IMG/VR virus record: IMGVR_UViG_3300020558_000001
From: an uncultured virus (IMG/VR IMGVR_UViG_3300020558_000001)
Taxonomy: Duplodnaviria > Heunggongvirae > Uroviricota > Caudoviricetes
Direction: 5' to 3' (one strand)
DNA length: 64,000 nt
Position numbers and translations under genes: made by a program. The notes beneath the pieces were generated by a model. It searched no databases. It worked only from the letters and a program-made list of their open reading frames with translations, and was not told the origin of the DNA. The stretch's first letter is position 1, and each line of letters begins with the position of its first letter. Positions 52,559 through 54,103 of the stretch are shown here, piece after piece.

Positions 52559-52753
52559 ATGGCTTCTTTAATCAAAGCTTTTGTTGTAGGATTACTTATA
52601 ATCCTAAATGTAATCCTCATCATTTGTACTATGGAAATAGTAAATGATGTTACTGAATTTCAAGCTATATGCTTAGGCTTAGCATGTTGCATTACAACTA
52701 CTGGTTGTATTGGTGCAGCTGTAGGTATATCTATGGTAAATACAGAGAGTTAA
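52559..52753 (+). CDS. Small two-TM membrane protein
   Basis: 64 aa with two hydrophobic helices. Confidence 0.65.
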   Translation: MASLIKAFVVGLLIILNVILIICTMEIVNDVTEFQAICLGLACCITTTGCIGAAVGISMVNTES

Positions 52754-52770
52754 TCTCTCTGTATTTTTTA
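52739..52770 (+). terminator. Intrinsic terminator
   Basis: AATACAGAGAG / CTCTCTGTATT stem plus T-run. Confidence 0.7.
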
Positions 52771-52891: not shown

Positions 52892-52969
52892 ATGGCTGAT
52901 TTATGTGCAATTGCAAGTGCTATACTATTTACAATAGTAATCATAGCACTAAACTATAAAAGAGATTAA
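52892..52969 (+). CDS. 25-aa single-TM peptide
   Basis: MADLCAIASAILFTIVIIALNYKRD; ends inside a terminator hairpin. Confidence 0.5.
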   Translation: MADLCAIASAILFTIVIIALNYKRD

Positions 52970-52990
52970 CATCTCTTTTATTTTTTTTAT
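52957..52990 (+). terminator. Intrinsic terminator
   Basis: TAAAAGAGA / TCTCTTTTA stem plus a long T-run. Confidence 0.65.
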
Positions 52991-52995
52991 TTCCT

Positions 52996-53024
52996 TTCAC
53001 CCTTCCCCCTACATATTTGGGACA
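52996..53024 (+). repeat. C-rich 29-mer, copy 1 (candidate phage promoter)
   Basis: TTCACCCTTCCCCCTACATATTTGGGACA; 26/29 identical to 55042-55070. Confidence 0.8.
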
Positions 53025-53276
53025 CTAACAAAGTCTAGTTATATACACATGGTTACTGGTGTATAATAATGAAAAACGTGTAACTCATAGCATAAGTGAA
53101 ACAAACAATGCATACTTTAATGTATTTACCTAAGAATAAGTAAATTGCAAAAATAGTTGATAACATCATTAATCTTATGGCACCGTGATACCTCTAAATT
53201 TAATTGACAATGACAATTAAATAGGTTAGAAAGTTCAGCATAAGACTATTACATTAAAGTATATTATTTAAAAAAC

Positions 53277-53466
53277 TTAATAACTTCCCAAGTTGTTGAG
53301 GGCACCAGTTTCTTTGATAATTAGAGATACAGTAAAGTGTGACAAAAAACTCTAATGTAAGCAGCGATGTTATATCAGAAGTTATAAATAAATTGCAAGT
53401 TATTTATAATGGAGATATTTCACCTGTGTCAATCCTTACAGATTATCAAAGTTTTAGGTGTAAAAC
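53277..53466 (+). ncRNA. Unassigned structured RNA
   Basis: Hairpin CTTAATAACT/AGTTGTTGAG with TCCCA loop; CACC/GGTG and CTTTGATAAT/ATTATCAAAG stems enclosing nested hairpins. Confidence 0.45.
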
Positions 53467-53708
53467 ACATTATTATGATGAGTTATTGACATTAATAAGG
53501 TAGCACCTTATTGTTAAACAGGTCATCGTTTAACTCAGATAAATTGCCTGTTGTTTATCAGTCATTTTAATTGTTTATAAAAAGTTGCAATGTAAAATCT
53601 AAATATATCATAATAGACGTATTATGAAGAAGGTAGTCTTATACTTTTTAGTTGGTTAAATGGGATGTTGAAATAGAGCACATCACCCTGAATACATTGT
53701 AACTTTTT

Positions 53709-53865
53709 ATTTTAATGCACCACAACTCACTTCCCAAGGGTGAGCAGTTGTAATTGGTTATGTCCATTCTAGAAGGGATATAATCTGTAAACCTACTGTC
53801 ACATAGATGACAGCTTGAAAAACATCGCCAAAGATGTGGGATTACAACTGAGTGCAGAGGGAAAT
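53709..53865 (+). ncRNA. Twister ribozyme-like RNA (P1-type) with extended P5
   Basis: AUUU-UAA-UGCA-CC-ACAA-CUCAC-UUCCCAAGG-GUGAG-[CAGUUGUAAU...AUUACAACUG]-AG-UGCA-GAGGG-AAAU matches twister P1/L1/P2/P4/L4 and both pseudoknots. Confidence 0.7.
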
Positions 53866-53893
53866 TATTTTTAAACACTTTAAATTTAATAAC

Positions 53894-54043
53894 ATGAAAA
53901 ACTATAAAGTTATTTATTTAAATACAGAATATAGTGTTATGTCTATTTCTGTTACAGCTTCTAATGAAGAAGAAGCAAGATTATATGTATATAGTCATGT
54001 AGAAAATTGTATTAAAACACTTTCTGCTGAATATATAAATTAA
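53894..54043 (+). CDS. Small hypothetical protein (49 aa)
   Basis: ATG 53894; MKNYKVIY...VTASNEEEAR pattern common in small phage early proteins. Confidence 0.6.
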   Translation: MKNYKVIYLNTEYSVMSISVTASNEEEARLYVYSHVENCIKTLSAEYIN

Positions 54044-54103
54044 ACCTTATTAAAACTAAATGCAAAAAGAAATTATTTTTAAACATATTAACTACACAAC
54101 ACA

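Follow-up and report, generated by a model that had tools for sequence, protein, structure and literature searches.

The 64,000-nt stretch of viral DNA analyzed here (IMG/VR record IMGVR_UViG_3300020558_000001; hereafter the window) carries on its plus strand, at positions 53270–53468, an RNA element that is probably a widespread, uncatalogued variant of a known ribozyme class. By sequence comparison its core is that of the twister ribozyme in the strand order of the type-P3 circular permutation, and the element most likely works like a twister without being a canonical member of the class. In the explanation that we consider probable, it is a twister-derived self-cleaving RNA that has lost stem P4 and would be cut between U53461 and A53462.

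The region had been singled out in a sequence-only reading of the window by a 10-mer, ACTTCCCAAG, located at 53283–53292. Its sole other exact copy in the window lies at 53729–53738, also on the plus strand and 446 nt away. When one mismatch is allowed, 7 matches are found versus 3.2 expected, which is unremarkable (4 of 100 shuffles reach 7); what stands out is the exact pair, separated by 446 nt. The arrangement of parts given in that reading was also borne out: CACC (53303–06) and AGUUU (53307–11) are followed by a 10-bp stem (53312–21/53442–51) around a multi-hairpin insert, and then by UUUUA (53452–56), GGUG (53457–60) and UAAAAC. The plus-strand fold is better than that of its shuffles, with a minimum free energy of −46.1 kcal/mol (z = −3.89, none of 200 shuffles as good), and the minus-strand fold has z = −2.14.

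The element belongs to a large family of phage RNAs. A blastn search of GenBank phages matched a core of ~45–85 nt, beginning at window position 53270, with 80–92% identity in 14 crAss-like records, which comprise Suoliviridae of four subfamilies and one member of the Steigviridae. The match lies under no annotated feature in 10 of the 11 GenBank regions that were fetched, and the eleventh record carries no annotation whatever. A 25-nt pattern matched at least 116 IMG/VR loci on contigs of 4 to 270 kb from many samples, and after all scans 175 distinct copies had been parsed, 170 of which pass the pairing filter. In the aligned copies, common 5' and 3' blocks enclose an insert that differs widely in length and sequence, giving whole-element lengths of 84 to 270 nt. 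One copy is present in each of three complete phage records (176, 183 and 270 kb), and a single copy in the window is matched by the family model R1 (53267–53473, next match E = 0.18); one fragment has two copies in tandem. These tandem copies (L210, record G005) are on the minus strand at 235–379 and 472–561, with only a few bases between the first tail and the second leader. Of five element-bearing records, only two yielded a crAss-type capsid gene, and the element is therefore probably not confined to one phage order. Among prokaryote genome assemblies, 14 of 31 pattern matches pass the model, and 13 of these score at least 67 bits. Nearly all are contigs of metagenome-assembled genomes, and the sole isolate record among the 13 is a 1-kb low-coverage contig; no bacterial host is claimed.

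As the sequence-only reading had anticipated, the family is absent from Rfam. The window has no Rfam match at the gathering score, and a search of 52900–54100 at E values up to 10 gave seven matches, each scoring well under its threshold and none involving a ribozyme family. A search of the literature on twister and other self-cleaving RNAs, RAGATH motifs and crAss-like phages yielded no account of this RNA; the alignments of Roth 2014 and Weinberg 2015 may include the family. In the accessible portions of a Crassvirales review, ribozymes are mentioned only as introns.

The fold was derived from the variation among copies. The first variation seen did not fit the hairpin, formed with the leader, of the sequence-only reading. 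The two bases before UUGAG (CA or UG) shift together with two bases of the 3' tail (UG or CA), and the first C of CCC becomes U exactly when the third G of GAGGG becomes A. These joint changes indicate a four-pair helix, 53294–97/53464–67, and a pseudoknot, 53287–89/53300–02. When the resulting model (pseudoknot, tail helix, CACC/GGUG and variable stem) was tested on 52 sequences, 99.4% of cells were paired and none of 500 shuffles reached the covariation score. With 98 sequences, in an alignment that was enriched for variants by design and was model-aligned to the nested part of the fold, the pseudoknot columns being outside the model, 98.9% of cells were paired, 12 of 17 pairs had double changes in a total of 306 cells, and on every measure none of 500 shuffles was as good; slid-partner controls gave 26–47% paired. 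Mutual information is greatest for precisely those column pairs that are proposed as P0, T1, P2 and P1 and for no others, the closing pairs of the variable domain ranking highest. No covariation between columns of the 5' and 3' flanks, as a P3-type pairing would give, appears among these top pairs.

Each helix is supported individually. T1 is 98.3% paired and all three of its pairs covary (CG/UA/UG; CG/AU/UA/GC; CG/UA). Three of the four P2 pairs have double changes (CG 48, UA 46; AU 50, GC 44, CG 1; and a single change from U-A to C-G); with the adjoining G-C pair counted in, 99.2% of the helix is paired. Pooled tallies for P2 are CAUU/AAUG 108, UGUU/AACA 49, UAUU/AAUA 4, CGUU/AACG 2, CAUC/GAUG 1 and UCUU/AAGA 1. 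The adjoining pair G53292–C53468, at the position of T2, is GC in 96 sequences and GU in one, and never covaries, which neither favors nor disfavors it. P1 is 100% paired, with compensatory changes in three of four pairs (AU 77, GC 13, GU 8; CG 91, GC 4, UG 2, UA 1; CG 97, AU 1). A fair test of compensation is provided by one-sided scans of IMG/VR, in which the pattern forces a change on one strand and leaves the partner free. The middle pair of T1 was compensated in 31 of 36 such loci (CAC/GUG, UUC/GAA, UGC/GCA, CUC/GAG, UGC/GCG). For the inner pair, eight loci were recovered, two of them spurious, and two of the six real ones were compensated (UCU/AGA); of the four that were not, no 3' half could be detected in three, and the tail of the fourth is broken. 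The P2 scan gave one compensated locus (L129, CAUC/GAUG), one uncompensated locus (L130) and one cut by a contig end. The exclusion patterns used for P1 were unspecific (33 rows kept of 42 passing the filter, from 143 fetched loci) and yielded CGCC/GGCG 9, CGGC/GCCG 4, CGCA/UGCG 1, CAUC/GAUG 1 and CAGC/GCUG 1, plus 10 G-U forms. The RNA is read from the plus strand, since the G-U pairs seen in P1 would be A-C mismatches on the other strand. That the family exists, and that helices P0, P1, P2 and T1 form, can be regarded as established.

Placed on this fold, the conserved bases fall where a twister has them. The Rfam twister-P1 consensus runs P1, UAA, P2, GC, P3, P4 with loop GUCCCAAGCC, UAAA, P2', GAGGG, P1'. 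The phage RNA has the strand order of the type-P3 circular permutation (a class of Roth et al. 2014, per PMC5408937; Rfam clan CL00120), namely L4, P2 3', GAGGG, P1 3', a closed P1, P1 5', UAA and P2 5'. P1, a four-pair P2 and a three-pair T1 (CCC 53287–89 with GGG 53300–02) are all present. UAA stands directly 3' of the P1 5' strand GGUG, as in the twister-P1 consensus, and GAGGG lies between the P2 3' strand UGUU and the P1 3' strand CACC, its last three bases varying only jointly with their T1 partners. The segment UU-CCC-AAG supplies the T1 triplet as L4 does, the consensus having UCCCAAG. The core bases, which are the U preceding the triplet together with AAG, GA and UAA, are invariant in 97–98 of 98 aligned sequences. 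The first G of GAGGG is one that we take, on our own numbering of the rice twister sequence, to be G45. In that ribozyme G45 is the active-site guanine and A7 the adenine 3' of the cut (PMC5408937, table 1). The earlier suggestion of a permuted, uncatalogued twister-related RNA has thus held, and its assignment of stems has not, as covariation pairs AACA with UGUU and CCC with GGG. Its claim that the L1 positions lack GAGGG and UAA is true only under the stem names then in use; the two motifs are present at 53298–53302 and 53461–53463, flanking the CACC/GGUG helix. The "different core" that it proposed is contradicted, because covariation makes that helix P1 and so puts UAA and GAGGG in the twister L1 loop. 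The parts of the element are listed in Table 1.

Table 1. Parts of the element and the twister-like element downstream of it, in window coordinates.
Feature	Position	Strand	Description
5' leader	53270–53286	+	A-run 53270–75, CUUAAU 53276–81, AACUU 53282–86; 5' edge of conservation
L4-like strand	53287–53292	+	CCC (5' half of pseudoknot T1), then invariant AAG; U and AAG kept in 97 of 97 sequences with a letter there
P2 3' strand, UGUU	53294–53297	+	Pairs with 53464–67
GAGGG, twister L1 3' strand	53298–53302	+	Invariant GA, then GGG (3' half of T1); G in 97/97 and A in 98/98 sequences
P1 3' strand, CACC	53303–53306	+	Pairs with 53457–60
Internal-loop strand, AGUUU	53307–53311	+	In 98/98 sequences, an invariance partly imposed by search patterns that demanded AGTTT
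Variable "cargo" domain	53312–53451	+	Closed by 10-bp stem 53312–21/53442–51; distal extension of P1
Internal-loop strand, UUUUA	53452–53456	+	UUUUA in 172/175 and UGUUA in 3/175, the only two forms that the regular expression permitted
P1 5' strand, GGUG	53457–53460	+	Same covariation as CACC
UAA, twister L1 5' strand	53461–53463	+	Directly after GGUG; invariant in 98/98; predicted cut U53461/A53462
P2 5' strand, AACA, and C53468	53464–53468	+	AACA 53464–67; C53468 can pair with G53292 as a one-pair remnant of T2
Twister-like element, type P1	53709–53865	+	~250 nt downstream; P1 AUUU/AAAU, P2 UGCA/UGCA, L4 UUCCCAAGG in CUCAC/GUGAG stem, GAGGG at 53857–61

The leader is conserved as A5–8 followed by CU(C/U)AAU in 169 of 170 parsed distinct copies, and the sequence 5' of its A-run is not conserved. 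In 45 of the 170 copies an extra hairpin of 14–125 nt, with covarying stems, is accommodated between the leader and the CCC strand. At this position the same 34-nt insertion, with a GNRA-capped hairpin, was seen in 22 of 127 loci of the first scan (including L015, L019 and L024); because the copies that host it otherwise have unrelated variable domains, it suggests a mobile or recombining module.

If the element is a P4-less twister, its transcript would present in order the leader, the L4-like UU-CCC-AAG, one spacer base, the P2 3' strand, GAGGG, the P1 3' strand, the U-rich loop and variable cargo stem that close P1, the P1 5' strand, UAA, the P2 5' strand and one C. Pairing of CCC with the GGG of GAGGG would form T1 and, in twister fashion, place the L4 strand on the L1 loop. 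In a canonical twister L4 returns via P4 and the linker, whereas here its 3' end would run straight into P2, leaving for T2 just one G-C pair, stacked on P2. Self-cleavage at the U53461/A53462 step would then yield a 5' product consisting of leader, core and cargo that ends in a 2',3'-cyclic phosphate, and a downstream RNA that begins with a 5'-hydroxyl. The cleavage site is predicted by homology to twister, and catalysis and a biological role are inferred. The favored role would be 3'-end formation of a small phage RNA with a variable insert, or cutting of an early transcript, and the element probably forms the 3' end of a small RNA carrying the insert. It is suggested, as a proposal, that the A-rich leader docks on the U-rich AGUUU/UUUUA loop and, as a substitute for P4, holds the L4 strand in position; none of the three segments varies, in part because the search patterns fixed them. 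A more ambitious picture, put forward tentatively and judged less likely than not, is that of a natural twister active without P4, with its L4 strand held by the leader docked in AGUUU/UUUUA (as a short helix or a U-A-U triplex) and aided in a quarter of copies by a 5' hairpin where P4 would stack. It would serve as a single-copy, self-processing small-RNA gene of crAss-like and unrelated large phages, delivering a phage-specific insert with a cyclic-phosphate end.

Several observations weigh against the explanation as a P4-less self-cleaving twister. Stem P4 is absent from the phage RNA: AAG lies one base from the P2 3' strand, which leaves no free 3' strand for P4, and the conserved linker (UAAA in the Rfam consensus) is also missing. 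The one helix that might take the part of P4, the leader hairpin, overlaps P2 and T1 and does not covary. T2 consists of at most one invariant pair, G53292–C53468, stacked on P2, versus two pairs to the GC of L2 in twister. P1, P2 and P4 are described as the essential twister stems, and the L4-P4/L1-T1 architecture as key to the ribozyme's activity (PMC5408937); the accessible parts of a large-scale twister assay paper report that P4 imperfections are tolerated and describe no P4-less form. The Rfam twister models, at E values up to 10, miss the element in compact copies (81–106 nt) of six other loci. Uncompensated T1 or P2 mismatches occur in L146, L164, L170, L172, L150 and L130 (in L150, for example, CAUU stands with the tail AACA), and these copies may be decaying or recombinant. 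One low-depth RNA-library contig spans the predicted cut site, and the leader hairpin is favored by a mean of 3.05 kcal/mol in nearest-neighbor energies with T1 left out of the count. Conservation of the leader, of the AGUUU/UUUUA loop and of the nearly fixed P1 exceeds the needs of a twister core, and so the element may have another or an additional job. In view of the missing P4 and the silence of the Rfam models, we class it as a variant rather than a canonical twister. Loss of P4 and the linker would also suit a twister descendant that no longer cuts and serves as a rigid pseudoknotted "frame" displaying the variable insert, e.g., for a phage or host protein, with the twister-like bases kept for folding. 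The nearly fixed sequences of leader, U-rich loop and P1, which catalysis does not explain, an insert that is different in almost every phage, the single copy per complete genome (three of three complete records) and the contig crossing the predicted cut site all agree with such a frame. A scaffold would not, however, need every twister active-site base (the U-A step, the next A, and the GA before T1) to stay invariant in 98 sequences while the surrounding helices vary freely, nor a P2 of exactly four pairs, a length that matters for catalysis in twister (PMC5408937, section 11). We therefore consider a non-cutting frame unlikely, while giving it appreciable weight.

Two further proposals depend on the leader hairpin. 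In the sequence-only reading this hairpin, 53276–81/53295–53300, was P4, CACC/GGUG was P2, the 10-bp stem was P1, and AGUUU/UUUUA made up a catalytic loop of a new kind, unlike that of twister. In favor of this reading, 95.3% of cells allow the hairpin, which is also the structure of minimum free energy; AGUUU and UUUUA do not vary; and where the leader has C for U at the top pair the partner is always G (3/3 in the first alignment and 5/5 in the larger one). Shuffled alignments, however, are 94.9% paired, with 36 of 500 as high, as column composition alone would give; the hairpin does not covary, and it occupies three bases of P2 and one of T1, both of which helices do. At the loci where the two models differ (L129, L305, L131 and L138) compensation tracks P2 or T1 and not the hairpin, and the invariant UAA and GAGGG are left unexplained. 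By covariation CACC/GGUG is P1, and the 10-bp stem is a distal extension of P1 beyond the U-rich internal loop. The assignment of the hairpin as P4 is thus rejected together with the other two, and the model as a whole has very little probability left. Since it is the nearest-neighbor optimum, the hairpin may be a folding intermediate or an OFF state. A switchable ribozyme on this basis would hide the P2 3' strand and one T1 base in the hairpin and would cut only after the leader has been displaced by some factor or by the 3' tail, whose synthesis follows that of the long insert. The states exclude each other and differ little in computed energy (by a mean of 3.05 kcal/mol with T1 left out), and the leader is retained in 169 of 170 copies even with a hairpin of up to 125 nt between it and the core. 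Against a switch stand the lack of covariation for the hairpin, the persistence of copies with a one-base deletion or mismatch in the leader strand, and the absence of any indicated ligand or factor. A switch seems improbable, if marginally less so than the hairpin-as-P4 model, and it would refine the explanation as a P4-less twister rather than exclude it.

The element is represented in RNA libraries. Contigs from four freshwater runs (four studies) cover the 5' core, 53270–53321, at a word depth of 59–144 in three runs and 8 in the fourth, versus 4–29 over the flanks; these are assembled contigs from relatives with other inserts, and they show presence in RNA libraries only and not RNA ends. 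Holes in the contig cover at 53352–53444 carry no evidential weight. Low-depth contigs also cover 53450–53672. Upstream of the element, a 226-nt plus-strand segment (53014–53239) is covered by RNA-library contigs in all four runs with 6 differences, and contigs end at 53238/53239 in three of them; the segment may be another conserved transcript or only an assembly break.

The source of the window is a crAss-like phage, with giant open reading frames (ORFs) on the minus strand up to 51865 and plus-strand genes from 51980. Its capsid-like ORF shares 61.7% identity with its counterpart in the Flavobacterium phage FpV4 group, and the stretch is present in DNA runs of lake and freshwater samples. 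The element sits on the plus strand in an ORF-poor gap of ~880 nt (52971–53851). A terminator-like hairpin at 52738–52766 (+), with 12 pairs followed by a T-run, stands directly after the ORF 52559–52753, so this RNA-rich gap may be a separate transcription unit. No tRNA or tmRNA was detected in the window, and promoter-like sites in the scan are at chance level (10 found versus 10.4 expected). Twelve neighboring proteins from the window and eight GenBank phages gave no Pfam family and one PHROGs family of unknown function, so no gene association can be assigned to the element. The record nearest to the window, a 37-kb fragment (G001), has no match to the element.

Other ribozyme-related RNAs are found nearby. 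In other phages, Rfam detects RAGATH-12, RAGATH-14 and sub-threshold twister-P1 matches less than 1 kb from the element. RAGATH-12 (89 bits; L017 870–951 and L104 494–575) and RAGATH-14 (169.5 bits; L075 628–858) lie a few hundred bases from it, and proximity to RAGATH motifs is a classic ribozyme-associated neighborhood. This setting fits the explanation as a P4-less twister, as does the type-P1 element downstream in the window. In the window itself, the second copy of the 10-mer belongs to the twister-like element of type P1 given in Table 1, whose predicted cut is U53713^A53714 and which has a variable insert separating the halves of P5. At least 120 IMG/VR loci contain its 20-nt core without a difference, and covariation is seen in its P2 (UGUA/UACA); Rfam makes no call on it in the window and has no match at E values up to 0.1 in ten loci. 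This element resembles the P4-less one in its L4 words (ACUUCCCAAG with an extra U), its GAGGG and UAA, its long variable insert, its absence from Rfam and its wide distribution. Unlike the P4-less element, it has a genuine P4 (CUCAC/GUGAG), a T2 of two pairs (CC with GG) and P1 ends that are not permuted, and it carries its insert in P5 and not in P1. Members of both families share a locus and a strand in 5 of 174 and 3 of 120 loci, with either one first. In L345, L419, L350 and L437 the type-P1 element ends 4–5 bases before the leader of the P4-less element, the reverse of the order in the window. If both elements of the window cut as predicted, the product released between them would be a 252-nt RNA (53462–53713, +) that starts with a 5'-hydroxyl and ends in a cyclic phosphate; neither an ORF nor a known RNA family was found in this segment.

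Twister is among the best-studied small ribozymes. If the P4-less explanation is correct, a large natural family with all twister active-site bases but without P4 would mean that the fold can be rewired more deeply than in the three known circular permutations, and would offer a compact new scaffold for ribozyme engineering. It would also add a conserved non-coding gene to the crAss-like phages, whose genomes are annotated without it. Should the RNA prove non-cleaving, there remains a widespread phage RNA that is uncatalogued and whose pseudoknot fold has strong support.

Compared with the known type-P3 twisters, the ends of the phage RNA lie in the junction after T2 and not inside the P3 helix, and two features are extra: a conserved, A-rich leader and, within the P1 extension, an internal loop rich in U. 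As far as the accessible part of the paper shows, Eckert et al. 2023 (PMC10085705) sought the missing twister permutations and "did not find promising candidates." Like the phage RNA, twister-sister vaguely resembles twister in its sequence and its stems and has an adenine 3' of the cut (PMC5408937, section 8). It differs in that it cuts in the opposite loop strand, has no pseudoknot evidence and lacks other key twister bases (PMC5408937), whereas the phage RNA has a covarying T1 and all L1 and L4 bases; no Rfam match to twister-sister was obtained in the window region or in the six loci with compact copies at E values up to 10. A precedent for a natural ribozyme core with altered strand connectivity is provided by the non-circularly permuted hammerhead ribozymes, also metagenomic, of Eckert et al. 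2023 (PMC10085705). The hammerhead permutations reported there differ from the phage RNA in kind, as the order of the latter is a plain circular permutation minus one stem.

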